Source: a virus. From it: a stretch of DNA of 64,000 nt. Shown in pieces: positions 14,473 through 30,881 of the stretch; within the stretch, counting starts at the first letter, position 1; every line of letters begins with the position of its first letter. The position numbers and the translations under genes were made by a program. The notes beneath the pieces were generated by a model. It made no database searches. It saw only the letters and a list, made by a program, of their open reading frames with translations, and had not been told where the DNA came from. Where the stretch lies: positions 22,833-86,832 of IMG/VR virus record IMGVR_UViG_3300017963_000024; one strand, 5' to 3'.

Positions 14473-14902
14473 AATCTACCGTGGAACCAACTCAGCCCTG
14501 ACCAATCTGGTAGCCTCAGAAAGAGATCCGATTTTCATCCCCGGCGGGGTAAAAGACTCCACCCCGCCAGCTTTCAAATCCCCGGAAAAGAGGCTCATGG
14601 CTGCAATCCTAGAAGCAGCCCTAGACGACCTCCGCAAGAAACCCACCTACCTATCCAGCCACACCCCCGACGAGAGACAGAGAAAGAACCGTCTAATTCG
14701 CTTGAAAAACAATGCGATAGACTGGTTCGAGGACGATGACGACACCTACGTCTTCTCCTTCCCCTCAGTCACACAAACGCTCTTCTCAGCCCACCCAGCT
14801 TCCATTCGAGAAGCCCTGAGAGCGTCCCACCTCCTTGAAAAAGAATCACCAGAAATCCCCCGTCAATCACCCAAGAGAATCAAAAAGCCCGCCCACAAGT
14901 AA
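14372..14902 (+). CDS. hypothetical protein with PEKRLM.A.LE.A motif (start uncertain)
   Basis: SPEKRLMAAILEAALDDL...AIDWF..DD.YVFSF..V pattern recognised from bacterial hypothetical proteins. Confidence 0.6.
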   Translation: MRGGSGLMRKRRAIKKQRGAGPPIPSARQASIFEIYRGTNSALTNLVASERDPIFIPGGVKDSTPPAFKSPEKRLMAAILEAALDDLRKKPTYLSSHTPDERQRKNRLIRLKNNAIDWFEDDDDTYVFSFPSVTQTLFSAHPASIREALRASHLLEKESPEIPRQSPKRIKKPAHK

Positions 14903-15120
14903 TTCCCCGCCTGTTATATGTAAGGGGTAGATTCAAACTACCCCTCCCACCTGATTCAAAAACACCCTCAAAGATTTCAGGACAGAAAATCCAGCAAAAA
15001 CAACGGGAAGCGATTCCACACAACCCAAAACAAACGGGGAGAGTTGTGAAAAAGCGGCCCTACCGATTCCAAAAACCTTCAGGGGGACACATCGCTGAAA
15101 AAGGGGGTAATCTCGCCTTC

Positions 15121-15171
15121 AAAAGGTCCTAGAGGGGGTAATCCACCCTACAAAAGGTCCTAGAGGGGGTA
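15121..15171. repeat. direct repeat AAAAGGTCCTAGAGGGGGTA x2
   Basis: Copies at 15121-15140 and 15152-15171. Confidence 0.85.
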
Positions 15172-15218
15172 CACGCTTGAATGAAGTATCAATACTCGCT
15201 CGTGTGAGCACTGCGGTT

Positions 15219-15397
15219 GCAATACTCGTGAGTATTCGCACCGCTCACGGAGCGGCGTTCCTTATATAGACAGAAACCCATAGCAGCCCTCCTACGGTGC
15301 GAATACTCGTGAGTATTCGTGCCCTCCTACGGTGCGAATACTCGTGAGTATTCGTGCCCTCCTACGGTGCGAATACTCGTGAGTATTCGTGCCCTCC
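15219..15397. repeat. tandem 35-bp repeat x3 with palindromic core (plus one inverted partial copy); candidate origin iterons/operators
   Basis: GCCCTCCTACGGTGCGAATACTCGTGAGTATTCGT at 15286, 15321, 15356; core also at about 15219-15243. Confidence 0.9.
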
Positions 15398-15409
15398 CCC
15401 GCCCCCAAC

Positions 15410-15438
15410 TTGACAAAGCTTTGATAATGTGAGACAAT
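15410..15438 (+). promoter_or_regulatory. early sigma70 promoter P1
   Basis: TTGACA-AAGCTT...17 bp-GACAAT with extended TG. Confidence 0.75.
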
Positions 15439-15492
15439 ATGACCGTGGAAAAAGCCCATTCTAACGGTCACAGACCAGAAAGGAGGAACAGA

Positions 15493-15774
15493 ATGGCGGT
15501 ATCGAAATCATTGGAGGAGCAGTTGGCGGCTTTGACTGGAAAAGGGGGCAATACGAAGAAAGCCCCTGCCAAGAAGAAGGGGGGCCGCCCCAAGAAGACC
15601 GAGGCGGAAAAGATCGTGGAGAAGGTCCTGAAAAAGGGTCCGAAGTGCAACTTCTGCGGGCGTCCTGCCACGGTCGAAGTTCTCATCGCTGAACTGGACG
15701 GTAGCCATGTGAAATCGGTGATGCTCTGCAAGGGCTGCACGGGGAAGCGCATGAACTTCAGGAAGGAGGGGTAA
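15493..15774 (+). CDS. small Lys-rich Zn-ribbon protein
   Basis: RBS AAGGAGG; CNFC...CKGC. Confidence 0.7.
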   Translation: MAVSKSLEEQLAALTGKGGNTKKAPAKKKGGRPKKTEAEKIVEKVLKKGPKCNFCGRPATVEVLIAELDGSHVKSVMLCKGCTGKRMNFRKEG

Positions 15775-15775
15775 G

Positions 15776-16261
15776 ATGGTGGCGAAGAGCACGTTCGTTT
15801 CCCCGATTCGGTTCACAGAAACGTGGGAGCGGCTAACCGAGAAACAGAGGGAGTTCGTTCTGGATGCTTTCGATGGTACTTCACAGGACGAACTGGTGGA
15901 CGCGCTCACACGCATCGACACGATCATCGTCTACCACGGAATGCTCAAGGACGCGGAGGAGCACGAGAGGAACATGGACCCGAAACGCGGCACAGAGGAT
16001 GAGGACTGCACCTGTCCACAGTGTCGCGGGTTTGGGCACGATGACAGGATCGTGGTCGATCTCCAGAAGGAGAAAGCCACAACGGGGACGCTCATCTGTG
16101 AGCTACTCCAAACCTTCATCGACGATGTTCCCCGTAGCGAGATCCTCGATGCAATCCACAGACTCCGGGTGTGGGTCGAGCGGCATCCGGGTGTCAGCCC
16201 TGACATTCGTAATCTGAAATGCTCCGCTCCAGACTACGAACTCTTCGAGGTTTGTCCGTGA
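15776..16261 (+). CDS. hypothetical protein
   Basis: RBS GGAGG; CTCPQC motif. Confidence 0.65.
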   Translation: MVAKSTFVSPIRFTETWERLTEKQREFVLDAFDGTSQDELVDALTRIDTIIVYHGMLKDAEEHERNMDPKRGTEDEDCTCPQCRGFGHDDRIVVDLQKEKATTGTLICELLQTFIDDVPRSEILDAIHRLRVWVERHPGVSPDIRNLKCSAPDYELFEVCP

Positions 16262-16458
16262 GTACGCTCAAGCAACTCAGGAAGGTGCGTAACAAAGCTT
16301 ACCGGCTGTCGATCATACTCGGGGATGTGATCGCAATCCTCAACGGGACTTACATCAAGCGTGTGATGAGAAAGCACGCGCTGAAGCGGGCCGGTAGAGC
16401 AACGATGTGGGGCATCCCCGTTTCAAAGCTGAAAGGAAAAAGGAGGAAGCGCAGATGA
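16258..16458 (+). CDS. small basic protein, paralog of 22890..23060
   Basis: GTG overlapping the upstream TGA; AYRLSIILGDVIAILNG.YIKRVMRK. Confidence 0.6.
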   Translation: MSTLKQLRKVRNKAYRLSIILGDVIAILNGTYIKRVMRKHALKRAGRATMWGIPVSKLKGKRRKRR

Positions 16459-16736
16459 AGGGGAACTACGAAGAAGGGAAATTGGGGCGAACAGCGGCAG
16501 AGAGTCTGCTGGCGGCTGCCAACCTGATGGGAAACGAAGCAGAGGTTGATGCGTTCATGGACACGATCATGCGGTCCCACCGTACTCTGCAACAGGGGGC
16601 GGGGCGTTTCATCCAAGCTTTGATCTTCAACACGGCGGAGGACAAGTGGGGCCACGATCTCCGTAATGAAGCGTGGGTGGAGTTCTGCAAGGCAGCCAAA
16701 CCTCTCGTGTGGGACCACCCGCTGCCGTTCATGTAG
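16455..16736 (+). CDS. hypothetical protein
   Basis: RBS AGGAGG; HRTLQQ motif. Confidence 0.65.
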   Translation: MKGNYEEGKLGRTAAESLLAAANLMGNEAEVDAFMDTIMRSHRTLQQGAGRFIQALIFNTAEDKWGHDLRNEAWVEFCKAAKPLVWDHPLPFM

Positions 16737-16790
16737 CAGGGGGAGCGGCTCGCCATAGCGGGCCTACCCTGCTATGGCGGGACTGCTAAC

Positions 16791-16819
16791 TTGACAAAGC
16801 TTTGGGCATTTGGTACAAT
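16791..16819 (+). promoter_or_regulatory. early sigma70 promoter P2
   Basis: TTGACA-AAGCTT...17 bp-TACAAT. Confidence 0.85.
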
Positions 16820-16875
16820 GTGCCACCATCGAGAAACGGGGATTTCCCCCACACACACAACGAAAGGAGGAAGCG

Positions 16876-17481
16876 ATGGCAGTAGATCTGAAGAAGAAGT
16901 TGGCGGCCTTGAAGGCGAAGGCTGCCGCCGCGAAGAAGGAGTCCAACGGGAAGGTGCCGAAGAAGGGTGCTTTCAAGGAGGACAAGAAGGCAGCGGCAAA
17001 GGTGAAGGGTGAGGTGAAGAAGAAGGGGAAGAAGGACTACGACCCGGACAAGGAGGAGTTGTTCGGCGGGATGACCGAGAAGGAGATGAAGAAGATCGAG
17101 CGGACGACCAATCCGAGGGAACTCGATGTCTCCACCCGGCGTTACCTCCCGCAGATCAACGAGACGTGTGCCATCCTCCGGCAGATCGAGAAGCTGAACG
17201 AGGAAGTCTTCTGCGCGGTGGGGACGTTGCTGTTCGACAGGACGGTGGCGGGAGAATTGAAGTGGGCCAACCAGTGTCTCAAGGCCAACGACATGGGGCT
17301 GGACTTCAAGGGCGAGGTGGATCAGCCTGTCGAGAAGGTGCTCGACGTTCTGTATCTGGCAGGGTTCTACGTGGCGGAGGTGCAGAAGAAGCAGATTGCT
17401 TTGGCCCACCAGACGAGCAAGGCCAAGGCGGTGGTGCTGGCCGGGAAGGATTCCTGCAAGGTTGCCGTTGCCAAGGTGTAA
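16876..17481 (+). CDS. Lys/Ala-rich hypothetical early protein
   Basis: RBS AAAGGAGG; strong GC3 codon bias. Confidence 0.75.
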   Translation: MAVDLKKKLAALKAKAAAAKKESNGKVPKKGAFKEDKKAAAKVKGEVKKKGKKDYDPDKEELFGGMTEKEMKKIERTTNPRELDVSTRRYLPQINETCAILRQIEKLNEEVFCAVGTLLFDRTVAGELKWANQCLKANDMGLDFKGEVDQPVEKVLDVLYLAGFYVAEVQKKQIALAHQTSKAKAVVLAGKDSCKVAVAKV

Positions 17482-17508
17482 AGCGGCTCGCCATAGCGGG
17501 GAGGAAAG

Positions 17509-17537
17509 TTGACAAAGCTTTCCTCCCTTGCTATAAT
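17509..17537 (+). promoter_or_regulatory. early sigma70 promoter P3 (perfect consensus)
   Basis: TTGACA-17 bp-TATAAT with TG; AAGCTT in spacer; embedded in an inverted repeat 17493-17534. Confidence 0.9.
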
Positions 17538-17592
17538 GTATGCACAGTGAGGGAAGGGATTTCCCCTTCCCCTTAGACGAAGGAGGAGCGAA

Positions 17593-17844
17593 ATGGCAAC
17601 ATCGAAAGACAGAGAGATCGAGAAGCTGCGGAAGGAACTGGCTGCCATGAAGTCGAAGAAGTCGAAGGTGGAGTCGGGTCTGAACCTCTCGGTCACGTCG
17701 GGCAAGAACAGGCTGGCCGTGGCGGGGCTGGCCGGGATCAAGGGCTACGTGTTCACGTTCAAGCGGGCGACGATCATGGACATTCTGGAGAACGCGAAGC
17801 GCATCGTCGAGTTCCTCGACGAGCACCCCGAGATCGAGGAGTAG
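17593..17844 (+). CDS. small hypothetical early protein
   Basis: RBS AAGGAGGAGCGAA-ATG; followed by a GC hairpin with a UUCG loop. Confidence 0.75.
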   Translation: MATSKDREIEKLRKELAAMKSKKSKVESGLNLSVTSGKNRLAVAGLAGIKGYVFTFKRATIMDILENAKRIVEFLDEHPEIEE

Positions 17845-18182
17845 ACCGCCGGAGCACGGCCCCCTTCGGGGGGCCGCCCCCTCCCGAAACGAACCGCTCC
17901 CCGAGGAGCGGCCAGCCATAGGAGGCGAGTATGACGTTGGCAGTACAAGTTTGCCGCGTCTGCCTCCGACCGGAGAATCTCTGCAAGTGTACCGAAGCTC
18001 TCGAACGCGCCTATGCAGAGAGTGAAGGTCCTTGGATCATTCGGACGGAGGAGGAGATAGCGGCTTTGGATTGCAGGGGCAGACCATGAGCAAAACATTC
18101 AAGGATGATCGAGGCGATGGAGACAAACGTTACCGGCTGCTGATGAAGAAGGCGGAGCAGTCGAGGAAGGAACGGAGGAGGT

Positions 18183-18464
18183 ATGAAGCTTTCAGTCGAA
18201 GCGAAGAAAGAACTCGTCAGGGTCGTGGACAACACATGGAGCGCAATCGCAATCGACGTGCTCCAGTGCCTAGCTGATTGCGAAGGCAAGAAGGTCGAGG
18301 CGGTCACAGTGGACCGGGAGTCCGTGTGTGACTCTGTCCTCAACTATTGGGAAACGCACGGCGGGAAGATGAGTGACGAACTCAAAACCTTCCTCCGTTC
18401 GGGAAGCGATCTGGTCAGGAAGTCTGTCCGGGGGTGTCTGAAGTTCTCCCGTTACGGACTCTGA
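18183..18464 (+). CDS. hypothetical protein
   Basis: RBS GGAGGAGG. Confidence 0.65.
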   Translation: MKLSVEAKKELVRVVDNTWSAIAIDVLQCLADCEGKKVEAVTVDRESVCDSVLNYWETHGGKMSDELKTFLRSGSDLVRKSVRGCLKFSRYGL

Positions 18465-18635
18465 CCGCTACGGGCTGCTCCCTCTGTCCCCCCGGAGGGA
18501 GCGGTCCACCTCCCAGCCGCTTAGGGGTCGCCGCACAAGCGGCGCAATCTTTTTTTTAGCAAGCGGTGCAAGACCAGCCGCGAAGCGGCTGCTCATAAGG
18601 GCAACCCATAGGTGGGGGATAAGCCGCCTCTCGAT

Positions 18636-18664
18636 TTGACAAAGCTTCAAAGCTTTGCTATACT
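18636..18664 (+). promoter_or_regulatory. early sigma70 promoter P4
   Basis: TTGACA-AAGCTTCAAAGCTTTGC-TATACT (two AAGCTT in spacer). Confidence 0.88.
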
Positions 18665-18696
18665 GTAACCATCGAAAACAACCACGGAGGAAGGAC

Positions 18697-19164
18697 ATGA
18701 GAAAGACAAAGTATAGATGGCCCGCAATGACCAAGGCACTAGAGGCAAAGTACGAGAGAGCCAGAAAGGAGGTTCCGCGACTCTGGAACGGAATTGTGCT
18801 GGGACTCGGGGAAGAGTTCCTGCTCCACTGGAAGAACCAGAGAGAGTGCCATGATAACCGCGACCTCGAAGAAGTGTGGGAGGTGTGGAGGCACCTGACG
18901 AGTGGAGGTGGTGCCCGCCCCAAGACCCCGAACGACACCTACCGGATTGCAATGGCATGGCTCCCAAAGCTTGTCCACCGTACTACCTCCGCAGGTGAGG
19001 CAATCCGTTGGGTGCAGGGGGTTCTCAACGAAGACGGGGAACTGTCGGACAATGGTATCGCCATCCCCTTCTTTGCCGTCTCCCATCATGGGACAACCCG
19101 CGATGCTCTGGAGCACATTGCCATGAAGAGGCATGAAGAAGTCTTTGACATGGGTTCTTGCTAG
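18697..19164 (+). CDS. hypothetical early protein
   Basis: RBS GGAGGAAGG before ATG 18697. Confidence 0.65.
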   Translation: MRKTKYRWPAMTKALEAKYERARKEVPRLWNGIVLGLGEEFLLHWKNQRECHDNRDLEEVWEVWRHLTSGGGARPKTPNDTYRIAMAWLPKLVHRTTSAGEAIRWVQGVLNEDGELSDNGIAIPFFAVSHHGTTRDALEHIAMKRHEEVFDMGSC

Positions 19165-19225
19165 AAAGAGAGTGTGTGCGCGGCCCCCCGTGGGTGTGGG
19201 GGCCGCCGAACCATAGGAGGAGAAA

Positions 19226-19501
19226 ATGAAAGAACTACAGGGCAATGAATTCTTTGATCTGTTCGACCCGGAGGTTCACCAGACGCTCAAGGACGTGGCA
19301 AAGAAGTTCGACGCGGACGGGATGATCGTGTTCGAGAATCTCCAGATGGACTCCAGTCAGTTCGGGGAGCGAACTGCCGTGGTGTTCGGGTCATGCTGCA
19401 CCTACAAGACGGCGCAGGACGCGGAGGGGAAGTGGCTGTACGATCTCCCGTCTCAGAGGCAGTACGCAACGGCATGGGTGGATGCGGTGTGGTTGGATTA
19501 A
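19226..19501 (+). CDS. hypothetical protein
   Basis: RBS AGGAGG. Confidence 0.7.
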   Translation: MKELQGNEFFDLFDPEVHQTLKDVAKKFDADGMIVFENLQMDSSQFGERTAVVFGSCCTYKTAQDAEGKWLYDLPSQRQYATAWVDAVWLD

Positions 19502-19526
19502 CAGAAAACCATAGCGCGGGTCCAGC

Positions 19527-19555
19527 TTGACACTCCTTCAAAGCTTTGCTATACT
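19527..19555 (+). promoter_or_regulatory. early sigma70 promoter P5
   Basis: TTGACA-17 bp (contains AAAGCTTT)-TATACT. Confidence 0.85.
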
Positions 19556-19582
19556 GGTTGCAAATGGAGGAAGGAGATTCCA

Positions 19583-20068
19583 ATGACCAGAACCTATGAA
19601 GTTTGTGATCGGTGTTCCCGCGTCGTCAGCAAGTGGGAGAGAGATGCGGGCTGGGCTGCCTGTCATGGACGGGGAGTCATCGAGGTCCCCGAAGAGGCAG
19701 CTAAGGACTACGAGTCCTGCCGCCTCTGCGATGAGCCAGCCGTCGCTTACGTGGAGTGGGTGAGTGATGCTGATGGGTGGGACCGCAGGACGGGGCTGGC
19801 TACGGTGGTCGAACAGGTCGAACGGTTCCCGTACTGTTTGGAGCACGTTCAGACGACCATCTCCGATGGTGACGCTATCGGGAGTGAGCCTGTTGAGCCG
19901 CTGACGTTCGAGTTTCTGCTCAATATCTCGCGGAGTCTGGAGGATGTCTATGACTTCTTCTGGTCCTGCATGAAACACAAAGGAGTCTACCACCCGAACC
20001 ACAGGAAGCGTCGTGGTCTTGCGCGTGCCTTTCGGGGGATTGGAGGAAGGGTTCGCCGAGGAGGGTGA
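19583..20068 (+). CDS. Cys-rich hypothetical protein
   Basis: RBS GGAGGAAGGAG; CDRC, CRLC, CLEH. Confidence 0.65.
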   Translation: MTRTYEVCDRCSRVVSKWERDAGWAACHGRGVIEVPEEAAKDYESCRLCDEPAVAYVEWVSDADGWDRRTGLATVVEQVERFPYCLEHVQTTISDGDAIGSEPVEPLTFEFLLNISRSLEDVYDFFWSCMKHKGVYHPNHRKRRGLARAFRGIGGRVRRGG

Positions 20069-20217
20069 AAGCCCTACCTCATCCACCCGGTAGGCGGAAT
20101 CTTCGGATTCCGCCTATGGCTGACCCCCACCCGTGGGGCTGATCGTGCGTAGCACGCGGGATCGTGGGGAACACCTAGCGGGTGCTCATAACAGAAACCC
20201 ATAAGCCGCTAGTCCAT

Positions 20218-20245
20218 TTGACAAAGCTTTTAGATTTGCTATAAT
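20218..20245 (+). promoter_or_regulatory. early sigma70 promoter P6
   Basis: TTGACA-AAGCTT...16 bp-TATAAT. Confidence 0.85.
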
Positions 20246-20287
20246 GTAGTCACGTTGGAAATGAATCCAACAACAAAGGAGGAAGGT

Positions 20288-20857
20288 ATGCACGCAGAAG
20301 GAAAAGTTGGAGTAAGTGAGTTCGTGCGGAGGCAAACCCCGGAATCACGCTTCGGGCACTTCGAGGGAACGTAGGAAGAACTGGTGAAGATGGTCGAGGC
20401 AGTTGAAGTGGAGAAGTGGGAGCGTGGCTACCGGGATGGTGTGTGGCTCGTCCCCATAACGCGGAGTGAGCCGTGGGGGGGTGCGGTACAGAGATTCTTC
20501 ACCAGCATCGTTCCCACGAAAGGCCGAATCATGTACGGGAGGTGGGAGGCGAGGAGGCCGGGTGAGAAACCTGTGATGGTCCGAACGGTAGCTGGTGACA
20601 AAACCAGAGCTAACTTCGTGGCAATCGTGCTCTACGAAGATTGGGTGCTCGCGGAAGACAACGAACGGTCCACCGACAAGAAGTACGAGATCATCTCCAT
20701 CAACGCCTCCCCGTTGGACAAGGATGTTCCGATGACCCCGGAAACGATGAAGCGCAACATGAACCACGAGGCTGGGGGAACGAAGGGAACATACACAGAC
20801 GAGGAGTTCGCGGAGTCGGAGGCTTTCTGGAAGGCTCACGCAATGGTGGAGAGGTGA
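20288..20857 (+). pseudogene. DUF3228-like gene interrupted by in-frame TAG (20372-20374)
   Basis: Strong RBS and ATG 20288; FVRRQT...HFEGT*EELV continues in frame into GYRDGV...YEIISINA...PMTPETMKRN. Confidence 0.6.
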
Positions 20858-21059
20858 GATGCTGAAGACGATGCTGGGCGGACTGGTGAAGGAGGGGCTG
20901 AAACAAACGAGTGAGTTCAGGAATCGCCCCTCCGGGTTGTATGACAGGAACGAGGAAGAATTGACGTTCGAGGAGGTTTTCAAACACCTCCTCGATGCGC
21001 TAAGAAAAGGATAATCTGCGAGCGGTGAGACGGATACCTTCCCCCGTCACCCGTGTCGA

Positions 21060-21090
21060 GGGGCAGTCTTTCGGGACTGCCCCTTTTTTT
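21060..21090 (+). terminator. intrinsic terminator ending the early cassette array
   Basis: GGGGCAGTC-loop-GACTGCCCC followed by T7. Confidence 0.9.
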
Positions 21091-21433
21091 GTCCTCGTCG
21101 CTCTGTGGACGAGCGGTGCATTTGACTTGCTAGCGGCGCGCCTTACGCTTCGTGGAGGTCGTTCAGTCAAAGCTTTCCTGAAAACGCGCGGTGCAGCTTT
21201 TAACGGCAGACTCGACGCTTTTGGACCCCCCCCGAACAGAAGTTCGTACCCCCTGACCGACCCCCTGACCGGGGGTGTCAAAGCTTTGACGGTGCCGTGA
21301 AGTGTCACATGGTCAAAGTTTGTCACTTTCCAAAAGTCAAAGCTTTTCGACCACTTAGGGGGGAAGGTTCAAGGAAATTCGACCTTTGTGTCAAAGCTTT
21401 GACGGTAGTGCGAACAAACGTTCACGATAGGAC

Positions 21434-21494
21434 GTCAAGGACCGTGCCAAAAGCTTTGAACCTTCAAAGCTTTGACGTTGGCACGGTCCTAGCT
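21434..21494. promoter_or_regulatory. divergent pair of sigma54-like -24/-12 boxes forming an inverted repeat
   Basis: TGGCACGGTCCTAGCT (+, 21479) and TGGCACGGTCCTTGAC (-, 21449), flanking two AAAGCTTT. Confidence 0.55.
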
Positions 21495-21778
21495 ACCATT
21501 CCGAACCATGATCGGTTCACGTTCCCCCCCTTCGGTTCCCCTTCGGTCAAGCCTTCCCCTTGGAAGGTGAGGAACCAAAGGGGATTCGGCACCTTCCAAG
21601 GTGAGCAGTCAGGGATTGCAGAATAATCGTGGCTCCTGATTGGCCGAACGAAGGTTCGGTCACGTCACTCCAGTTCTGATGATCGAAACCTTGGAAGGGG
21701 TGACAGGGAAGGGGAACCCTTCCTACCGAATAAGAACCCAAAAGCTTTGAACCTACAACGATCAAGGGAAGGTGAGAA

Positions 21779-22831
21779 ATGGCTACTGACAAAACTGAGT
21801 TTGTTACTCCTGAAGGGTTTGTTTTCTACGTTCCTACCTCTGATGCCGATGTAATCATGCAACAGAGGAAGGAAGGCCGTCGAACCCTTCTCGAAATTCT
21901 AGAAGGAAGGGGATATGAGCCTTCCGAAGTGACCGAACCTTCCGAACCCTTGGAAGTGGTCAAAGGCTCCGAGCCTGAACTTCCGATTGAACTTACAGAC
22001 GTGGTCAACGAACCGAAGGTTCAAACGAAGCCACTTCGGAGAACAATCGTTGACCGTTCCCGTGAGTCAAAGCTTGAAGAACTGACAAGCCTTCTGACTC
22101 AACAGAACGAAGCTTTGAAAGCTCAGTTGCTTGAACTGAGGAAAGAAGCCAACGGGAACGAACCTGAAGCCAACGAAGCCACTTCGGAAACGGTCAACGG
22201 TCCTGTCACTCCTGAAATGGTCGAAGCCTTTTTCGTTTCCATTCTGGCAACAATCGGAAGGGATGTTAAAGCCTTCGTTTCCACGTTCGTTCGGTTCACC
22301 TTCAAGCTTGTTTCCTTCACCTTCAAGCTTGCCACTTCCCCCCTTTGGGTTCCTATCAAGTGGCTTGTCCGGTTCGGATTGTACCTGAACGGAGTTTCCC
22401 CTTCGGGAACGGTCAAGCCTTCAGGAACCGTCAAGGCTTCGGTTCCTTCCGAACCTTCCGAACCTTCGGGAACGAAGGGAACGAAGGGAACGAAGGGAAC
22501 GAAGGGAACGAAGGCAAAGTCAAAGCTTATCCCTGAAGCCACTTCCTACAAGGCTTTGACCGAACGAATCCGAACGAACTTTGGTTACGGTGCCGACCGT
22601 TGGCTTTGTGGCTGGATTGCAAACGAAGGTGAGGAACCGGGAGACGTTCCCGAACTTTCCAAAAGCCCTAGGATTGCAGACACGTTGGCTTTCCTTCATG
22701 CAATCAAGGAACGTGTTTTCAACGGGAACGAAGCTTTGACCGTCAAGTGGTACAACGAACACGTTCGGCAAGACAACGAATGGAAGGTTCGGAAGGGGAA
22801 GGCTTCAGCTAACGTCTACATTTCAGAGTGA
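21779..22831 (+). CDS. hypothetical protein with coiled coil, hydrophobic segment and EPS/GTK repeats
   Basis: 350-aa ORF, RBS GGGAAGGTGAG; 9-bp repeat GGAACGAAG x5 at 22469-22513. Confidence 0.75.
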   Translation: MATDKTEFVTPEGFVFYVPTSDADVIMQQRKEGRRTLLEILEGRGYEPSEVTEPSEPLEVVKGSEPELPIELTDVVNEPKVQTKPLRRTIVDRSRESKLEELTSLLTQQNEALKAQLLELRKEANGNEPEANEATSETVNGPVTPEMVEAFFVSILATIGRDVKAFVSTFVRFTFKLVSFTFKLATSPLWVPIKWLVRFGLYLNGVSPSGTVKPSGTVKASVPSEPSEPSGTKGTKGTKGTKGTKAKSKLIPEATSYKALTERIRTNFGYGADRWLCGWIANEGEEPGDVPELSKSPRIADTLAFLHAIKERVFNGNEALTVKWYNEHVRQDNEWKVRKGKASANVYISE

Positions 22832-22889
22832 AGCCAACGAAGGGGGGAACGTTCCTCAGTTCCCCCCTTTCCTGAAGGGAAGGTGAGGA

Positions 22890-23060
22890 ATGAACATCAG
22901 GAAGGCAAGGGGAAAGCTTTACAGGCTTGCAAGGGTACTCGGTGACGTTCAGGCAATGCTAGACGGTCCCGAAGCCTACGTGAAGAGGCTTGCAAGGAAA
23001 CAAGCCTTGAAGGCTTCGGGAAAGTCGATCAACCATGCAATCAGAAGGAAGGGAAGGTGA
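22890..23060 (+). CDS. small basic protein (56 aa, below ORF-track cutoff)
   Basis: RBS GGGAAGGTGAGGA-ATG; MNIRKARGKLYRLARVLGDVQAMLDGPEAYVKRLARK. Confidence 0.75.
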   Translation: MNIRKARGKLYRLARVLGDVQAMLDGPEAYVKRLARKQALKASGKSINHAIRRKGR

Positions 23061-23064
23061 GGAA

Positions 23065-23364
23065 ATGGAAATGAACTTCAGAAGGAACTACAACGATCAA
23101 AGCTTGATAGTTCCCCTTTGTGGACTGTGCAACGAACGGACAACAATCAACGAATTAACCGTGGCTACAGTGCAAAGGGAAGGTGAGGAACCGAAGGTGA
23201 AGGCCGTGTGCTTCGATTGCTTAGGAGCCTACTCCGACTCTGAAGTGTCGAAGATCACTCGGACGTCAATCGTGAAGGTTCGACCTTTTCCCGTTCGGGA
23301 AACTGAAGGGGGGGAACTGAAGGAACGTTCCTTCGGTAGAGTTCACCGATTCAACGTGTACTGA
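23065..23364 (+). CDS. small Zn-finger protein
   Basis: Same RBS; CGLC...CFDC. Confidence 0.7.
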   Translation: MEMNFRRNYNDQSLIVPLCGLCNERTTINELTVATVQREGEEPKVKAVCFDCLGAYSDSEVSKITRTSIVKVRPFPVRETEGGELKERSFGRVHRFNVY

Positions 23365-23380
23365 CAAAGCTTGAACAACG

Positions 23381-23420
23381 AAGGGGGGGAAGGGGGGAAC
23401 GTTCCCCTTCCCCCCTTTTT
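23381..23420 (+). terminator. intrinsic terminator
   Basis: G-rich/C-rich hairpin around GAACGTTC followed by a T tract. Confidence 0.8.
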
Positions 23421-23465
23421 CTGGCTTCGTTCCTTCAATCAAACGTCATTCTAAAAGCTTTGATA

Positions 23466-23651
23466 TGCAACGAACGTGCCACTTCCGAACCGTCAAAGCT
23501 TTGACACGTTCGGGAACCGTTGGCACAAAGCTTGCAAGCCAACAGACGTTTGGCCTAGTCAAACGATTCCCCTTCAAGGAACGTGCCAAGTGGCTTCCCC
23601 TTGCCAAGTAAAGCTTTGACAAAAAGTGGCACCGTAGCAACGAACGTGCCA
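23466..23651. promoter_or_regulatory. cluster of sigma54 -24/-12 consensus boxes on both strands
   Basis: TGGCAC-N5-TTGCW perfect at 23466-23481 (-), 23521-23536 (+), 23636-23651 (-); near match 23573-23588 (-). Confidence 0.65.
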
Positions 23652-24057
23652 AGGCCAGTAACAAAATTTGACCATGCACGGCTAGCACGAAGCCATTTTT
23701 GGCTGACCGACCCCTGACCGGGGACCCCTCTCCGCACGAATTTTCGTTCGTACCCCCTCTTTAGGACCCCCTCGAAAATATAGCGGAAAAATCTATCAAA
23801 ACTTGGAAATTTGGCGGAAAAATTTATCAAGTTTTGAGGACTGCCTTAATGCGAGCGGGGGGAAATGGTGAAATGTGTGAATTGAAAAAAGTTTCGTTGT
23901 GCAGTGGAAGATTTCCGCTCGGCGTGCTAGGGTCCCATGTGTAAGCTGGCAGTAGGTCGAATAGCTAGAAAGGAGTATGCACGATGGAAGATGCCGAAGT
24001 GGTCGAACTGGTCATGGCCCTGTCCCGCGAGATCGGGTGGAGGAACGAGGAGGAGTG

Positions 24058-24363
24058 ATGGACACAATTGACGCTGAACACTGGTCACGTCTACAAGACA
24101 TCTGGAAGCGACTCGATGACCTCAAGTGTGACATTCGCGGCATTGGGGCCGACGACCAGCGGATTGATAGCCAAGTGGATGATGTGGTCGAGCTACTCTA
24201 CACGGCACAGTGCCGCGTGGAGGAAGCGCAGGGTGCCATCGCAGACCACTATGACGAGATGATTGAACAGAAAAACCAGCGCATTGAGGAGCTGGAAGAA
24301 GAGGTTGCCAGACTAAAGAAACCCGGCTCAGTAACCGCAGCCCGCGAGACTGAGGAGGAGTGA
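24058..24363 (+). CDS. coiled-coil hypothetical protein
   Basis: RBS GAGGAGGAG before ATG 24058. Confidence 0.55.
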   Translation: MDTIDAEHWSRLQDIWKRLDDLKCDIRGIGADDQRIDSQVDDVVELLYTAQCRVEEAQGAIADHYDEMIEQKNQRIEELEEEVARLKKPGSVTAARETEEE

Positions 24364-24364
24364 G

Positions 24365-24682
24365 ATGAGGGCTACCGACACGCGAATTGTTTACGGCGCT
24401 AAGTGTACGTGGTGGGACGTAATCCAGACCGTCGCTACGCTCCCCCCGCGCATAGGAGATCGTGGTCTGGCGGGTCTACCATGCTGCCCACACTGCGACA
24501 GCGTCCTGATATTTGAGGTGGATGCCGCAACCGCGTGGCGCAACGTGGACGAATACGAACGGGATGGTCATCCGGGTTATAGGGCCATGATGGAGTGGGC
24601 ATGGAAGAAATGCTTCCCGTCGAGGGTATGGACTTGGAGTTCGAGGACGGTTACGGCTTCCGCATCGACTACATCAACGTGA
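24365..24682 (+). CDS. Cys-rich hypothetical protein
   Basis: CTWWD...LPCCPHC. Confidence 0.55.
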   Translation: MRATDTRIVYGAKCTWWDVIQTVATLPPRIGDRGLAGLPCCPHCDSVLIFEVDAATAWRNVDEYERDGHPGYRAMMEWAWKKCFPSRVWTWSSRTVTASASTTST

Positions 24683-24874
24683 AGCTGCCCAATGGTGAGA
24701 TCGTCCTGTCCGAGAAGGAGGAAAGGTTGCAGATCAGCAGTGATCCACAGCACCTCCGCGATGCGATGGTACATCTCGACAAGCTTGCCGAAGAGTGGAT
24801 AAGGAACGGATGGTCTGTCACCCGTTCGCCTGACATCAAGAAGATCGCAAATGAAGAGCGAGAGAGGAGGGCGA

Positions 24875-25189
24875 ATGAAGGCTAAGAGCACACTGGACTT
24901 CCTTCCGGGGTACAACCGGAAGAGGATGACAAGGCGGGAAGACTACGACACGAGCAACGAAGCTGCCGACAGAGTGTTCACAAAGCTTCGCCCGTTGCAG
25001 AAGAGGGTTCTGGCTGCGCTTAGAAAGAAGCCGATGACTGACAGGCAGCTTGAAGCTTTGCCGGAGTTCGAGGAGTATATGTACTCCACAGTTCGTAAGC
25101 GGAGGAGTGAACTTTTCCAAGACGGGCTGGTCGAGAAAGCCGGAAGGGACCCGGAGACTCGAATGACGATCTGGAGGGCTGCAAGATGA
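24875..25189 (+). CDS. winged helix-turn-helix protein
   Basis: TSNEAA...VLAAL...MTD.QL...STVRKRRSEL...GLVE. Confidence 0.7.
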   Translation: MKAKSTLDFLPGYNRKRMTRREDYDTSNEAADRVFTKLRPLQKRVLAALRKKPMTDRQLEALPEFEEYMYSTVRKRRSELFQDGLVEKAGRDPETRMTIWRAAR

Positions 25190-26213
25190 GCTTTGAAATC
25201 TGGAGGTTCTCCTGCAATTTCCTCCGCCGTGGAGTTTTCATCTTCTTCAGGTTCGGACCTAACAAGAAGACTGGTGGCTGGATAGATTACAGAAAAGTAA
25301 TCGGTTTCTATTGGCCTTGGTGGGGTTGGCTGGTCAGACGGGAGGAAAAGCGAAGGAGGCAGAAAGATGGGGTATCTATTTCTGACGGCGAAAGACGGTA
25401 GTGAAACAATCATCAATCTTTTGCACGTCAAGATGATCTGCACCTCCCGTGAAGGTGGAAGTGAGATCCGAATGAGCGATGGTGGTTACTACACGACAAC
25501 CACTTCCGTCAGTGAGTTGAAGAACCAAGTTGTTCAAGCCCTGCGGCAAGCTTTGTTTGGTCTAAGGGGTGTGTGATGGGCGTCGAATTCGGAGTTGATG
25601 GTCACAGTACACAGGACAAGCTTGCCCGAATGACCGAGAAGGCTCGCTTGCTGGACGAGCATCTGGTAAAAAGGACGGCAGAGAGAAACGCAATCATCTT
25701 CGAGATCGAAAGGATGGCCGAGAGCTACAGGGCGGAAGCAAGTGAAAGCTTGAAGGGGGCAGCTAGATTGCTGTACGGAACCATCGCCCGTGAACTGGAC
25801 GGGATAGCCAAACGTTTCAGGGGAGAGTTCAATGTCAGAGCAGTTGAAAGCGGAGTTGGACAAGAGGATCAGGGAGAACACGGCACTACGGAGAGAGAAT
25901 CGGGGAGCGAAACTTCGGATCAAGCATCTGGAGATTGAGAATGAAAGGTTGACGGACAAGCTTCGGGATGCTGGACTGGAGCCATGAAGCGTAGAGAGTG
26001 GAGGATCGGGATTTCGATGGCTACGTTGGGACAAGTTTTGTGTGGGATTGGTGTCCATGATTACAGGCTGGACACTTCGTCAGGCTCGCTCGACTCGACT
26101 TTCCGTATCTGCAAACGACCGGGTTGCCACCACAAACAACGGTGGGTATCCTACGAGGAACTACCCGACCCGCTCTATGGTCGGGCAACAGGAAGATGGG
26201 AGGACATAGAGGA

Positions 26214-26333
26214 ATGAAAAAGCTTTGTTTTCTGCTCATTTTCTTTACATTCATGGGCTGCGATGGCAAGTTCAACCCAATCACCAAGCAGCCTCGTCCG
26301 TTGCCAACCGCTGCCGTAGAGGTGCCACAATGA
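26214..26333 (+). CDS. tiny predicted lipoprotein
   Basis: MKKLCFLLIFFTFMGC lipobox-like signal. Confidence 0.5.
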   Translation: MKKLCFLLIFFTFMGCDGKFNPITKQPRPLPTAAVEVPQ

Positions 26334-27007
26334 GAAAACTTTGTTTGCTGCTGGTTTTTCTGTTTCTTTTCGGTTGTGGTTCTCTGGCCCACAACAATGC
26401 AGACCCACGACCAGACCTCGCCTTGCCTGATCTTTGGGAGGAGCAACCTGCATCCTTCTACTTCGCACCTCTGGCAATCGAGGATCACCCCGACAGTGAT
26501 GTTGTACGGGAGACGGAACGGTCGATCCGCTACCTCAAGAACCACTACCTCCCGTACCTCGGGATGTACGAGGACGAGGAGAATCCTGAGATCACGTTCC
26601 ATACTATCCTGTTCGAGGACAACGACGACATCAACTTCGGGCGAACGTATCACCTAACCAAAGCTTGCCGAATCGAGTTGAACGAGGACAGGATCAAGGA
26701 AGTTCCAGTTCTTTGGGACCGTGCTCTGAAGAACACCTACGTCCACGAAGCGGGTCACTGCCTTGGCCTTGTTGTCACACCAACAGAGTCGGCCCAAAGA
26801 TCACCGGGGGACACGCTTAACCATTGCCGTCATTTTGACTGTGCCATGACGATTCGTGGGATTGGCAGTGACCTCGATCAGTTTCTCGGCTGGCTGGAGA
26901 ATGTTGGGAGTGACGAGCCAACTTTCTGCCGCCACTGCGAGGAGTATCTAATGAAACGCTTGGAGGAGAGGCACAATGAGCAGGAGAATGCTTCGGTTGC
27001 CCACTGA
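26330..27007 (+). CDS. lipoprotein zinc metalloprotease (metzincin/archaemetzincin-like)
   Basis: Lipobox LFGC; HEAGHCLGL; HC..CAM Met-turn; FCRHC. Confidence 0.75.
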   Translation: MRKLCLLLVFLFLFGCGSLAHNNADPRPDLALPDLWEEQPASFYFAPLAIEDHPDSDVVRETERSIRYLKNHYLPYLGMYEDEENPEITFHTILFEDNDDINFGRTYHLTKACRIELNEDRIKEVPVLWDRALKNTYVHEAGHCLGLVVTPTESAQRSPGDTLNHCRHFDCAMTIRGIGSDLDQFLGWLENVGSDEPTFCRHCEEYLMKRLEERHNEQENASVAH

Positions 27008-27205
27008 GAACCCCTACCCGTTGGAGGGATCAGCGGCAGTACCGGGAACAAGGGCTAGGGGTACTTTCACCAGTGAAGAACTCGTCAAGCAAGTTTTGAT
27101 GAGGTTGGCCGAGAAAGGCTTTCTGCGTGACGACACAGACGAGCGGCGAGAAGGCATCCTCAAGACGGTGAGTGAAGTGATGACGATCACAGATTCGGAG
27201 GAAGA

Positions 27206-27436
27206 ATGGAAAGGGTTCCTGTCGTAAGCTCGAACATCCACAGCGTCGGGTACGATCCAGACACCGAGACGCTTCAAATCCAGTTCAAGACAAAGAACGG
27301 AGGACCGGGGTATGTCTACAACTATCCCGGTATTCCAGCCTCAAAACACGAAGATCTGATGACTGCTAAGTCGAAGGGAAAGTTCTTCGCAATGGAGATC
27401 AAGCCTCTCACCAAAGGTGAGCGGATTGAAGAGTAG
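27206..27436 (+). CDS. KTSC domain protein
   Basis: MERVPVVSSNIHSVGYD...L.IQF..G.VY.Y..I....L..A.SKG.FF...IK. Confidence 0.9.
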   Translation: MERVPVVSSNIHSVGYDPDTETLQIQFKTKNGGPGYVYNYPGIPASKHEDLMTAKSKGKFFAMEIKPLTKGERIEE

Positions 27437-27440
27437 GAGA

Positions 27441-27535
27441 GTTGGGGTCCCATCGGCATAGCCTGTTGTGAACCGTGCGTACTTCGACCTACGCCAGCCC
27501 GCAACGTGAGTGCTCCGGTAGGGACCCCGACACCA
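27441..27535 (+). ncRNA. candidate tRNA-like long hairpin RNA ending in ACCA
   Basis: 11-bp terminal stem GTTGGGGTCCC/GGGACCCCGAC plus ACCA overhang; inner stems; apical TTCGA loop. Confidence 0.5.
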
Positions 27536-28303
27536 AATTATGACGAACGAACAATTTGAGGAACTTCTAAACGAGATCAGGATAGGATTCGTGACTCTGA
27601 GTTCTGCCACACTGCACGGGTTTGACAATCTGGCGGAGTGCTTCAGAAAGTCACAGCACCAGTGGACTTCCCCGCATCAACTTGTTGACAAAGCCGAAGC
27701 TTTAATGGCAGATGTGAGGAGACACTATGGGACGATCAAAGACTAAGAGCAAGAAGCCGACGCAGGAGAAGAGGGCTAAGAAGAGGCGTGGCAAGAATCA
27801 CAACTGATGAAGCCACCGGGACATACGATGTACCACTGTGACACGGGTTTTGCCTGTGGTTCTCTTTGCCTTGTCGGAGATACAGTTTGTGCCGCCCATT
27901 CAGCACCAATCTTTCGGAAGTGGAATGGAACAAGGTACAACAGGACATGGAAGCTCAATCGTTTGGGAGGAGCGAAAAATGCCAAGAGCCAGTCCGTAGT
28001 AAGTCCTCAGAGAAAAATTTCGATCTGAAACCCAAAACCTAAGAGGAGAAAAGCGATGTCTATGAAAGTTTTGTTAGGAGTTCCTTCCCCCTGTGAGTGT
28101 GCGCCCGGATTGGTTGAGAACCTGATCGAGGAAGTGCTCGACGAGTTTGCCTATCCGCCGGGACAGGAAGACCTTTGGGCTGGAATGTTTCTTTGTGGCG
28201 TGCTGATGAGCCGCCAAGACATCCTCGACAAGCTTCCGAAATGGCCCGGTACGGATGTTCCGATGATTACCCCTGAGACGGTCAAGATCGGGATTCTCTC
28301 GAC

Positions 28304-29128
28304 ATGACCCGCTTTGCGCTTCTGCTGGCTCTGCTTGTCCCGGTGCTGGCCGGGGCGCAGACTTCCATCGACGTTAAGGCTGCCGTGGCTCGCGCTGAAA
28401 GTGCGGCCATTCGAGCCGAAGTAGCCGCAATCAAGGCCCAGCAAAAATCCACAGTGGCTACAGAGGCAGCCGAACGTGCCGAAGCGGTTGTCAGAATCAT
28501 GGAGGTTCCTCCAAAGCTTGAAGTAACTCCAGAGGAGCCTGTAATTACAGAATACACTGCCCCCTTAACCTTCGTACCTCGTAGAGCGTCAATGGGCGGA
28601 GGAGGGGGAACTGATGCGTGTGGGGTGGACCCCGGAGCCGTTACTACGGACGGCTTCGGGATGTACGAGATCACGAATATCGAGAGTGGCACGAAGATCA
28701 AGCCCTTCAAGGTTGGTGGAACGTGCAACGCAATTTCTGCTCTCGATGCCTCGTGGATTCTGCAATACGTGGTCGGAAAGAGGGAGTTCGACTCGTTCCA
28801 ACTTTTAGCCTGTGACACTACAGGAAATGGTACGTGTTCGTCTCTCGATGCAGCAAAGATTTTACAGTACATGGTGGGTAAGATTGACAGGCTCCCCGCT
28901 GCTGACCTCTGCTGCTCCGACTGGCTGTTTTGGCCCGTGATTTCGGCTCTTCCCGTTGGTGTGGATCTTGTGACGGTCGCTCCCAATTTCGCTGGAGGCG
29001 TCTGCACGATGGGTTCTGCTGAATATACTTGGGAAGAGCCTCCTCCTGACGGAAGGATCATAGGCCAGAATTACAAGGGGATCGTGATCGGTGACGTAAC
29101 CGGAAACTGGCAACCTTGTGAGGAGTAG
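28304..29128 (+). CDS. secreted protein with dockerin type I-like domain
   Basis: Signal peptide; duplicated ISALDASWILQYVVG / DTTGNGTCSSLDAAKILQYMVG; C-terminal IGDVTGNW. Confidence 0.7.
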   Translation: MTRFALLLALLVPVLAGAQTSIDVKAAVARAESAAIRAEVAAIKAQQKSTVATEAAERAEAVVRIMEVPPKLEVTPEEPVITEYTAPLTFVPRRASMGGGGGTDACGVDPGAVTTDGFGMYEITNIESGTKIKPFKVGGTCNAISALDASWILQYVVGKREFDSFQLLACDTTGNGTCSSLDAAKILQYMVGKIDRLPAADLCCSDWLFWPVISALPVGVDLVTVAPNFAGGVCTMGSAEYTWEEPPPDGRIIGQNYKGIVIGDVTGNWQPCEE

Positions 29129-29130
29129 AG

Positions 29131-29430
29131 ATGAATGTGTTTGTGACCATGCTGATTCAGACCGCTCTAAAGCTTTTGGGCGAACTCATCGTTGCTTTCA
29201 TCGAGAATCTTCGGAAGGCAAGGATGGATGATCCCGATCTCGCTGGTGTGGTTCTGAAGATCGTGCAGGGAATCAACAATGACCACCCTGAGTGGGACAA
29301 CGAACAGAAATGGCGTTACGCAAAGGACGCCGTCATCCAGTACGGCAAGGGCCTTGGAAAAGATTTCAAGGATTCGCTCATCAACACGCTGATCGAGCTT
29401 GCCGTGCAGAAAGTGAAGCTCAATGGCTAA
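29131..29430 (+). CDS. LL-H-family holin-like protein
   Basis: N-terminal hydrophobic helix; EQK..A...V...G...INTLIELAV. Confidence 0.5.
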   Translation: MNVFVTMLIQTALKLLGELIVAFIENLRKARMDDPDLAGVVLKIVQGINNDHPEWDNEQKWRYAKDAVIQYGKGLGKDFKDSLINTLIELAVQKVKLNG

Positions 29431-29732
29431 GAAATGTGGTGGAGGCAAACGGAAGAGGCAGCGCAAGGGCCAAGGGGCGAAGTGATGAATCACCACATCC
29501 ATGTCTACTTGGTTGCAGGGTTACGGGAGTATGACTTCAAGGATTGCACCGAGACAGAAGCTCTGCAACGCGCTCTCGACAACGCACTGGACGGCAGAAA
29601 GAAATTCAAGCAAGCTGACTGTGTAGTTGTCGCGCTCTCTCCTTCTAACCCAGCAAACAAGACACAGTCGAAACCAAAGGGCGCTCCCGGTTCTGTGTTC
29701 TCGACCAGTGATCTCAGAGGAGGATCAAGGTG

Positions 29733-29960
29733 ATGTCCGACGAGACACCAAAAACCCCTGTTGCAATGGAAGCCGCGTACAAGGAGGTATGCGAGCTTCG
29801 TGCAAAGCTTTCTGTGGCTCAAGAGGCTATGGAGGAGCGAGCCAAAGCGCACGACCTGACGAGGCGAGAGTTGGATCGCGCTGCTACGGTTCGAGACAAC
29901 CTTAAAGAGCAACTCGACAAGGCTCTGCAAAAGTTTCAGAACGCGACTTTGAAGGCTTGA
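29733..29960 (+). CDS. small coiled-coil protein
   Basis: RBS and heptad pattern. Confidence 0.5.
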   Translation: MSDETPKTPVAMEAAYKEVCELRAKLSVAQEAMEERAKAHDLTRRELDRAATVRDNLKEQLDKALQKFQNATLKA

Positions 29961-30016
29961 CTTTGGTCTTGGCTACTTTACCCTAGAGAAGGGTGGATCG
30001 CTGTCCGCCTTCCTCC

Positions 30017-30058
30017 TTGGTGACGGGGGCTAGCCCCCCTTCAGGCCCCCGTCACCAA
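30017..30058 (+). terminator. strong hairpin, possible terminator or processing site
   Basis: 14-bp perfect stem TTGGTGACGGGGGC/GCCCCCGTCACCAA. Confidence 0.55.
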
Positions 30059-30234
30059 CCCAAACTTGGATTTTTTAGAACAGGGTGTTGACTTTCATGG
30101 GAGAGTTGTGACCAAAATATGCACAATCCTCTTTCCCCCTCGTGGGGCGGCCCTGATGGTGGCCGAAGTTTTGTCCCCCGACCATCAGGGTCGCCCGCCT
30201 CGGAGGAAGAGGGGATGAGGAAAGGAGAGAGAGG

Positions 30235-30873
30235 ATGAGAGATCAGAGGTTCTTCGGGGTTCTTACAACCCTGATTGTGCTGACGCTTCTTGGGCTTATT
30301 CTTCTGGCGTCTCCAACTTACGGTCAGGAAACCCCAACCGACACTCCAACGGACACGCCTACGGAGACTCCGACAGAGACTCCAACGGATACGCCTACGG
30401 CAACTCCAACAGACACCCCAACCGAAACACCGACACCCACCGACACGCCTACAGAGACTCCAACTGACACTCCAACGGACACGCCTACCGACACACCTAC
30501 TTCGACGCCAACCAGCACTCCAACAGCAACGCCAACAACCACATCTACGAACACTCCGACACCAACAGCTAGACCCGCTGGTTTCATGGGACCAATCTCA
30601 TCGTGTCCAAGTCCTCCTTGTTGCACAAACATCATGGGAGGTCTGACCAAAGGTTTGAAGACGGTTTCGGTTAAGCAGACAGGCACGGCAACTATGAAAG
30701 TGATGTGCCGCGTCTGTGACGACTTCAGTTGCCCGTTTGTGCAGATTGGTTCTGACATTACCGATTCAGCCGCACTCCTGACCTTTAGTGACTGGTGTTC
30801 AGAGTTAAAGCTTTGCGTCGATCCTTACACAGACGGCTCTTCAATGGGATGGGTCCGGTCTACAGGCAAATAG
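30235..30873 (+). CDS. secreted Pro/Thr-repeat protein with Cys-rich C-terminal domain
   Basis: Signal peptide; (TPTD/E)n linker. Confidence 0.8.
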
Positions 30874-30881
30874 GAGAAAGT

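Follow-up and report, generated by a model that had tools for sequence, protein, structure and literature searches.

The RNA polymerase that carries sigma-54 (RpoN) is usually regarded as acting on stress and metabolic regulons of the cell and as depending in every case on an ATPase activator, whose motif is the GAFTGA loop, and the extended consensus of the -24/-12 promoters it uses has a pyrimidine before TGGCAC. To our knowledge, very few cases of sigma-54 use in phages have been documented. According to PMC4591121, the sigma-54 holoenzyme binds DNA in a transcriptionally inactive form, and most of its sites in Escherichia coli are not classical promoters. In the table printed in PMC3844500, the Salmonella intergenic sites enriched by chromatin immunoprecipitation (ChIP) include sites with TGA at -12, as well as the glnA site with CGC. 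As cited in the available part of bioRxiv 10.1101/2023.10.13.562163, Pseudomonas phage YuA relies on both host sigma-70 and host sigma-54 (Ceyssens et al. 2008). Here we describe an array of boxes of the form TGGCAC-N5-TTGCW (where W is A or T) that brackets a 2.4-kb island in the genome of a phage from IMG/VR (record IMGVR_UViG_3300017963_000024). The window that was analysed is a stretch of 64,000 nt, i.e., bases 22833-86832 of this 86,832-bp virus record, which carries a 123-bp assembly overlap, and the positions given below are those of the window unless stated otherwise. The phage encodes a DnaB-type helicase, a primase-like protein, a family A polymerase and a RecA-like protein, so that its host should be a bacterium. 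Judged by their sequence, the boxes are probably binding sites of the host sigma-54 holoenzyme.

The boxes, and the palindromes and pairs to which they belong, are the following:

21434-21449, minus strand: box G, TGGCACGGTCCTTGAC, two mismatches, with TGA as its -12 element; left arm of palindrome P_L
21438-21490: palindrome P_L, 53 nt, near-perfect, GGACCGTGCCAA, with two AAAGCTTTGA units and TTGGCACGGTCC
21479-21494, plus strand: box F, TGGCACGGTCCTAGCT, one mismatch, directed toward the first island open reading frame (ORF1), whose ATG is at 21779, 285 nt past the box
23466-23481, minus strand: box A, perfect, TGGCACGTTCGTTGCA, directed leftward at a bidirectional hairpin (23384-23415), without a gene in front of it
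23467-23535: back-to-back pair P_R, which consists of GCAA-N5-GTGCCA, a 39-nt gap and TGGCAC-N5-TTGC
23521-23536, plus strand: box C, perfect, TGGCACAAAGCTTGCA, with an AAGCTT that overlaps its -12 element, directed toward the rightward block of genes
23573-23588, minus strand: box E, TGGCACGTTCCTTGAA, one mismatch, with TGA as its -12 element
23627-23651: third inverted pair, formed by a plus-strand TGGCAC without a -12 element and box B, with 13 nt between them
23636-23651, minus strand: box B, perfect, TGGCACGTTCGTTGCT
47096-47111, plus strand: fourth perfect box, intragenic and in the sense direction, whose first 15 bases are those of box C

As the initial annotation had reported, three perfect matches to TGGCAC-N5-TTGCW, at 23466-23481(-), 23521-23536(+) and 23636-23651(-), fall within a span of 186 bp. 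Among the near matches that it had listed, those at 23573-23588(-), with TTGA, and 21479-21494(+), with TAGC, indeed have a single mismatch, whereas the one given as 21449(-) corresponds to 21434-21449(-) and departs at two positions, including the C of the -12 element. The GG and GC elements at the fixed spacing are thus found in the three perfect edge boxes and in one intragenic box, the latter (47096-47111, plus strand) lying inside an ORF of 1204 amino acids (aa); two further boxes have one mismatch and one has two. The four perfect matches in the window compare with an expectation of 0.08, and none of 100 shuffled sequences reached four. A scan of the whole 86,832-bp record for the consensus returned the same four perfect matches, three of them at the island edge. 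When Markov chains of order 1 to 5 were trained on the island itself, three or more perfect matches were obtained in 0 of 3000 simulations per order. The hexamer TGGCAC alone is not enriched (54 copies genome-wide against about 42 expected), and seven of the 54 copies are at the island edges. TGGCAC followed by N5-TTG occurred in seven of the 54 cases when about 0.84 were expected, and five of those seven are at the island edges; the seventh TGGCAC of the edges, at 23627(+), has no -12 element. A chance origin of the boxes was therefore ruled out by the shuffles and by the island-trained simulations, and the box array is real and non-random.

The array is also symmetric. Every TGGCAC at the edges has an inverted GTGCCA partner, and at either edge of the island the boxes serve as the arms of inverted repeats that surround palindromes with AAGCTT at their centre. 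The arms of P_L are the boxes at 21434(-) and 21479(+), and as single-stranded DNA this palindrome is predicted to fold with -24 kcal/mol (z -7.85). P_R belongs to a 71-nt imperfect palindrome whose arms are the boxes at 23466(-) and 23521(+), and its centre is GTCAAAGCTTTGAC (23492-23505). This 14-mer palindrome has only three copies in the genome (at 21277-21290, 21390 and 23492), all of them at the island edges. A protelomerase site was considered and rejected, because the centre of P_L is not perfectly palindromic and no tyrosine-recombinase fold was found; the search for known RNA families gave just sub-threshold hairpin matches.

All the credible genes of the window are on the plus strand, and the genes next to the island share this direction, so that the arrays that bracket it do not form a divergent hub. 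Three perfect boxes and one near box (23466-23651) are within a gap without credible genes (23365-23976). It had been stated that only the box at 21479 points at genes. We found that a second one does so: the box at 21479(+) is followed on its strand by ORF1 after 285 nt, and that at 23521(+) by the gene that opens the long rightward block and has its ATG at 23977, 441 nt past the box.

We then considered which promoters could serve the genes around the array. The relevant features upstream of the island are:

15410-20245, plus strand: six sigma-70 promoters, TTGACA-16/17-TGnTAnnnT, with 10-12 of 12 positions matched and first hexamers at 15410, 16791, 17509, 18636, 19527 and 20218
21058-21085, plus strand: strong intrinsic terminator, a 12-pair stem followed by T8, which ends the sigma-70-driven block

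Each of the six promoters has an extended -10 element and is placed 56-172 nt ahead of a small gene. In the region 14800-24500 there are nine sigma-70-like matches against 2.5 expected, the six at 10-12/12 with the TG included, whereas in 23300-36000 only three were detected against 5.8 expected, all at 9/12 and without TG. In the genome-wide scan no intergenic plus-strand match of at least 10/12 was present from 20218 to the next one, some 55 kb on. One weak sigma-70-like match (TTGACG-16-TACCAT, 9/12) contains box F in its spacer. Hence the island genes share their layout with the long rightward block, which comprises the lysis, packaging and virion genes: each unit follows a terminator, has no sigma-70 promoter and carries a rightward box at its head. 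The proposal that sigma-54 drives the first transcription was not borne out, as the six near-consensus sigma-70 promoters directly upstream (15410-20245) are better candidates for early expression. All ten intergenic sigma-70 matches, which lie in 15410-20245 of the window and at genome positions 11685-23404, have the extended -10 TG, and in eight of the ten an AAGCTT directly follows the -35 hexamer or is part of the spacer (TTGACAAAGCTTT), so that AAGCTT resembles an operator that forms part of the early promoters. A sigma factor of the phage itself was rejected as the reader of the boxes, as no match to Sigma70_r2 was obtained in the phage and Sigma70_r4_2 gave just two sub-threshold matches.

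In order to learn whether the arrangement recurs, the form of 23467-23535, GCAA-N5-GTGCCA-N20-50-TGGCAC-N5-TTGC, was searched for in IMG/VR. It was present in at least 119 stretches, while the control, which was one pattern, read backwards, gave 0. P_R, with its 39-nt gap, fits this recurrent class. The 80 of the at least 119 stretches that were examined yielded 78 unique pairs in 51 sequence clusters, and the loci range from 30 to 68% G+C. The representatives of these clusters contain 102 boxes, in which the position after TGGCAC, which is free in the pattern, was G in 74 and A in 21, TTGC was followed by W in 78, and TGGCAC was preceded by T in 60. At least three perfect boxes within 400 nt on either side were found for 53 of 84 pair rows. 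Divergent genes were the commonest clear arrangement (14 of the 48 pairs with enough flanking sequence), and co-directional genes, as in this phage, accounted for six. The distance from a box to the next ORF on the same strand had a median of 305 nt (126 boxes, with crude ORF calls), so that leaders of 285 and 441 nt are ordinary. Four of ten downstream ORFs tested had a PHROG family, and one of these ORFs encodes a terminase large subunit, 189 nt behind the pair. The activator domain PF00158 was absent from all five of the other pair-carrying phage records that were searched for it. The composite GTGCCA..AAAGCTTT..TGGCAC was found at 30 IMG/VR loci, none of which has -12 elements on both arms; 30 is about the chance level by a rough estimate, the size of the collection not being known. 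Several of the IMG/VR contigs L153-L182 have about 41% G+C, many come from one sample, and their AAGCTT density is 4-6 times that expected; the search word favoured such genomes.

Since phages that differ so much in composition have this bipartite site in common, its reader is most likely conserved across hosts, as the sigma-54 holoenzyme would be. The flanks point the same way. In the 29 intergenic Salmonella sites of the table printed in PMC3844500, tallied by eye, TGGCAC is followed by G in 19 and by A in 10, and TTGC is followed by W in 27. The imperfect boxes, with TGA or AGC at -12, are in the known range, since the same table holds bound sites with TGA and CGC. The earlier identification of the boxes as sites of the RpoN consensus is therefore upheld by the range of ChIP-bound Salmonella sites, by the recurrence of the pair in no fewer than 119 stretches when the reversed pattern gave 0, and by the sigma-54-like flanks.

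In the scheme that we propose, the early genes would be transcribed by the sigma-70 polymerase from the six upstream promoters. The sigma-54 holoenzyme would dock at 21479(+) and 23521(+), where it would be opened by a host activator or by a phage factor, so that transcription would start at these boxes; 21479(+) would serve the three island genes, and 23521(+) the lysis, packaging and virion block. The leftward boxes may hold closed complexes, or they may make short non-coding RNAs that end at the hairpins 23384-23415 and 21058-21118. What the sequence itself shows is the motif with its symmetry and position, its recurrence in other phages and the missing sigma-70 promoters; sigma-54 as the reader, the start of transcription and the requirement for an activator are inferred. 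The joint proposal, i.e., that the boxes are host sigma-54 holoenzyme sites and that the rightward ones act as activator-dependent promoters, we consider to have slightly less than an even chance of being correct.

Several observations weigh against this scheme. Neither a PF00158 activator domain nor a Sigma54_DBD or Sigma54_CBD domain is present in the phage, and none of its six frames encodes a GAFTGA-like loop. The gaps inside the pairs (29 nt and 39 nt) have no space for a conventional enhancer 70-150 bp upstream, and there is no credible gene ahead of the boxes at 21434(-), 23466(-), 23573(-) and 23636(-). The spacer G[GT]TC[CG] is common to five boxes, which are copies of two repeat families, GCAACGAACGTGCCA, a direct repeat with three occurrences, and the 12-nt arms of P_L, so that the boxes represent fewer independent events than their number suggests. 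In addition, box C and the box at 47096 draw their -12 element from an abundant genome word, AAAGCTTGC, which has nine copies. No relatives were found by blastn against cultured phages, or by peptide scans of IMG/VR with the island ORF1, a DUF3228 protein and the portal, and no RNA run containing the stretch is listed. The best protein matches to cultured phages have 22-31% identity and are scattered over many host phyla. Neither the matches of the portal, PolA and RecA nor the lysis-region proteins pointed to a particular host.

The island extends from about 21275 to 23701, and its features, together with the landmarks of the rightward block, are:

21253-21274 (plus strand, left copy, CTGACCGACCCCCTGACCGGGG) and 23703-23723 (right copy): flanking direct repeat of 21/22 nt
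21779-22831, plus strand: ORF1, 350 aa
22890-23060, plus strand: ORF of 56 aa, basic
23065-23364, plus strand: ORF of 99 aa with CxxC...CxxC, zinc-ribbon
23384-23421, both strands: G/C-rich hairpin, terminator-like on both strands, which closes the island unit
29131-29430: holin-like gene, just ahead of unannotated ORFs that precede the portal
36102-37667: portal gene

The word GTTCGTACCCCC is present on both flanks (21242 and 23746), and GTTCGTACCCCC and GGACCCCC appear on both sides of the island in mirrored order and direct orientation. The ends of the island carry the same modules, GTGTCAAAGCTTTGACGGT, ATGGTCAAAKTTTGTYAC and the TGGCAC boxes, in inverted order. A search of metagenome contigs with the 19-mer GTGTCAAAGCTTTGACGGT returned five loci, none related by blastn or tblastx; in two small contigs (L029 2870-2950 and L032 1-80) a gene-free gap contains this island-edge 19-mer and, behind it, two GTGCGAAAGCTTTGA repeats, with no further likeness to the phage, and these contigs have three AAAGCTTTGA repeats. 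The composition of the island is distinct, as CGC is missing, GCG occurs once, and the number of tetranucleotides that never occur is 22, when random pieces of the same length lack 2.9 on average. AAGCTT is denser in the island than in the remainder of the phage. In the whole 86.8-kb record there are 212 copies of it against about 19 expected, mostly as CAAAGCTTTG, while 40 of the 64 six-base palindromes have zero copies where 16-26 of each are expected; the others that survive are AACGTT, TTGCAA, GAATTC, CAATTG, AAATTT, GCTAGC and TAGCTA.

Each island ORF is preceded by a ribosome site found only in the island, GGAAGGTGAG(G/A)A. The four genome copies of GGAAGGTGAGGA are all in the island (21562, 22878, 23052 and 23178), and two of them precede an ATG; ORF1 is preceded by the close variant GGAAGGTGAGAA, and the remainder of the phage uses AAGGAGGAGCGAA. 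No family and no homologue was found for the three island proteins, the search with ORF1 covering 5.8 billion proteins, and the Atlas models of island proteins are of low confidence (predicted local distance difference test, pLDDT, 0.50 and 0.54), and their hits were unusable. Five tandem 9-nt units (GGAACGAAG) at 22462-22513 in ORF1 encode a Gly-Thr-Lys repeat, and the Logan contigs break there. The depth of these contigs was 35.3 for the one wholly within the island and 34.4 and 32.4 for the flanking ones (values for contigs, not for read ends). As the depth is not doubled, a collapsed terminal repeat was ruled out, and the suggestion that the island is a terminal repeat or genome end is not supported. 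Runs X1 and X2 gave identical Logan contigs. They may represent a single data set, possibly the very one from which the record was assembled, and thus do not provide independent support. The genome's only C8 run is at 21226-21233, and the two Logan contigs that meet there share just these eight bases, in both runs; the junction could be a cohesive end that was filled in at library preparation, or it could reflect variation in homopolymer length. A 590-nt gene-free block (14903-15492), just ahead of the first sigma-70 promoter, has 3-4 copies of the palindrome GAATACTCGTGAGTATTC, and the contig depth rises there from 24.5 to 34.4, which could mark a packaging start or strain variation. The segment 24875-25189 encodes a small winged-helix-like protein with the invariant motif STVRKRRSEL, and homologues with 37-51% identity are encoded in 20 high-GC viral contigs. 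These 20 loci are from high-GC phages that are not kin of this one.

The dyad symmetry raises the question of whether the boxes are operators of a DNA-binding protein encoded by the phage or by the island itself, i.e., half-sites of arrays that regulate or join the island edges, so that the likeness to sigma-54 sites would be incidental. The pairing of every TGGCAC with an inverted GTGCCA would be expected in that case, as would the 53-nt near-perfect palindrome P_L with its z of -7.85. Furthermore, the core TGGCACG[GT]TC[CG] of five boxes includes the spacer, which sigma-54 does not read, and the AAGCTT found at the palindrome centres is also found in eight of ten intergenic sigma-70 promoters and is thus operator-like. 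Candidate proteins are at hand in the winged-helix protein encoded 1.3 kb downstream (24875-25189) and in the basic 56-aa protein and the zinc-ribbon protein of the island. Such operators would, however, require a coincidental match to a foreign consensus at 16 positions, with two unrelated spacers (GTTCG and AAAGC), and would not account for the presence of the pair, with flanks like those of sigma-54 sites, in at least 51 viral loci of distinct sequence; a perfect box was found in 0 of the 20 loci coding for winged-helix homologues. We adopted sigma-54 rather than a phage operator protein as the reader because at least 119 stretches contain the pair, with sigma-54-like flanks, and none the reversed pattern, and we regard the operator explanation as unlikely.

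The sigma-54 holoenzyme could also bind the boxes without using them as promoters, so that they would act as a roadblock or insulator, as a polymerase store or sponge, or as a genome-end element. In favour of this, most boxes have no gene ahead, the phage encodes no activator (PF00158), and inactive binding as well as non-promoter sites in E. coli are described in PMC4591121. At the left island edge the Logan contigs share just C8 (21226-21233) and not the usual k-1 overlap, which could mark a physical end, but homopolymer-length variation explains this break equally well, and the island depth is not doubled (35.3 against 34.4 and 32.4). By analogy with phage lambda, the holin-like gene at 29131-29430 would lead one to expect the packaging site near 30 kb, and not at 21.2 kb. 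The two units without a sigma-70 promoter would also still require a promoter, and a purely non-promoter role of the boxes appears rather improbable. Lower still we place the possibility that the arrays are sub-terminal binding sites of a mobile insertion, with the island being transposon-like or integrative. The 21/22-nt direct repeat and the further words shared by the flanks, the ends with the same modules inverted (GTGTCAAAGCTTTGACGGT, ATGGTCAAAKTTTGTYAC and the TGGCAC boxes), and the distinct composition (22 tetranucleotides absent against a mean of 2.9) with an own ribosome site would fit such an element. Site-specific recombination or transposition was nevertheless rejected, as no serine or tyrosine recombinase is present in the phage (PF00239 and PF00589 absent). 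The island proteins match no family, no second copy, empty site or joined form was seen, and the AAGCTT density, even higher in the island than elsewhere in the phage, argues for long residence, so that a mobile origin is very unlikely.

If the boxes are sigma-54 sites, this orphan phage leaves the expression of the island and of all its late genes to a pathway of the host that is silent until triggered, and the boxes offer a handle for host prediction, as the host must carry rpoN. The tight back-to-back geometry, seen in at least 51 distinct viral loci, would then imply a mode of activation or parking outside the textbooks. It is conceivable, although we advance it as a doubtful idea, that many unrelated phages, among them this one, keep back-to-back pairs of sigma-54 holoenzyme sites 20-50 bp apart, with neither an activator of their own nor space for an enhancer, which would be an undescribed use of the enhancer-dependent polymerase. 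Polymerases could, for example, be parked in a hub and released by a phage factor that is not of the AAA+ class, so that expression switches from the sigma-70 early genes to the late operon. Another possibility is that such complexes insulate the motif-purged island.

In lambda, the lysis, terminase, head and tail genes form a late operon with pR' as its one promoter. The type of promoter differs here, and no Q-like antiterminator was identified in this phage; in both, a single regulatory region precedes the lysis, packaging and virion genes, which form a very long block transcribed in one direction. Bacterial RpoN promoters, such as the Salmonella sites mapped by ChIP-chip (PMC3844500) and the E. 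coli sites mapped by ChIP-seq (PMC4591121), have the same bipartite -24/-12 element, spacing and flank preferences as the phage boxes, and some of the bacterial sites are bound without firing or have long 5′ leaders, in likeness to what is proposed here. The setting of the boxes is different, as they are found in a lytic phage that has no activator gene, the paired boxes leave no enhancer room between them, and most boxes face no gene. Moreover, the paired boxes of the phage are set closely back to back, with 29-39 nt between them, as compared with about 114 bp for the divergent hycA/hypA sites of Salmonella in the table of PMC3844500. In the literature searched, YuA was the sole phage precedent and no sigma-54 box arrays in phage genomes were found, and no sequence relation between it and this phage was detected. 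The cited passage on YuA describes one sigma-54-like promoter, and includes no bidirectional array, palindromic pairs or island. What this phage would have in common with YuA, to the extent that the passage covers it, is that a virulent phage combines sigma-70 promoters with a promoter of the host sigma-54 type.

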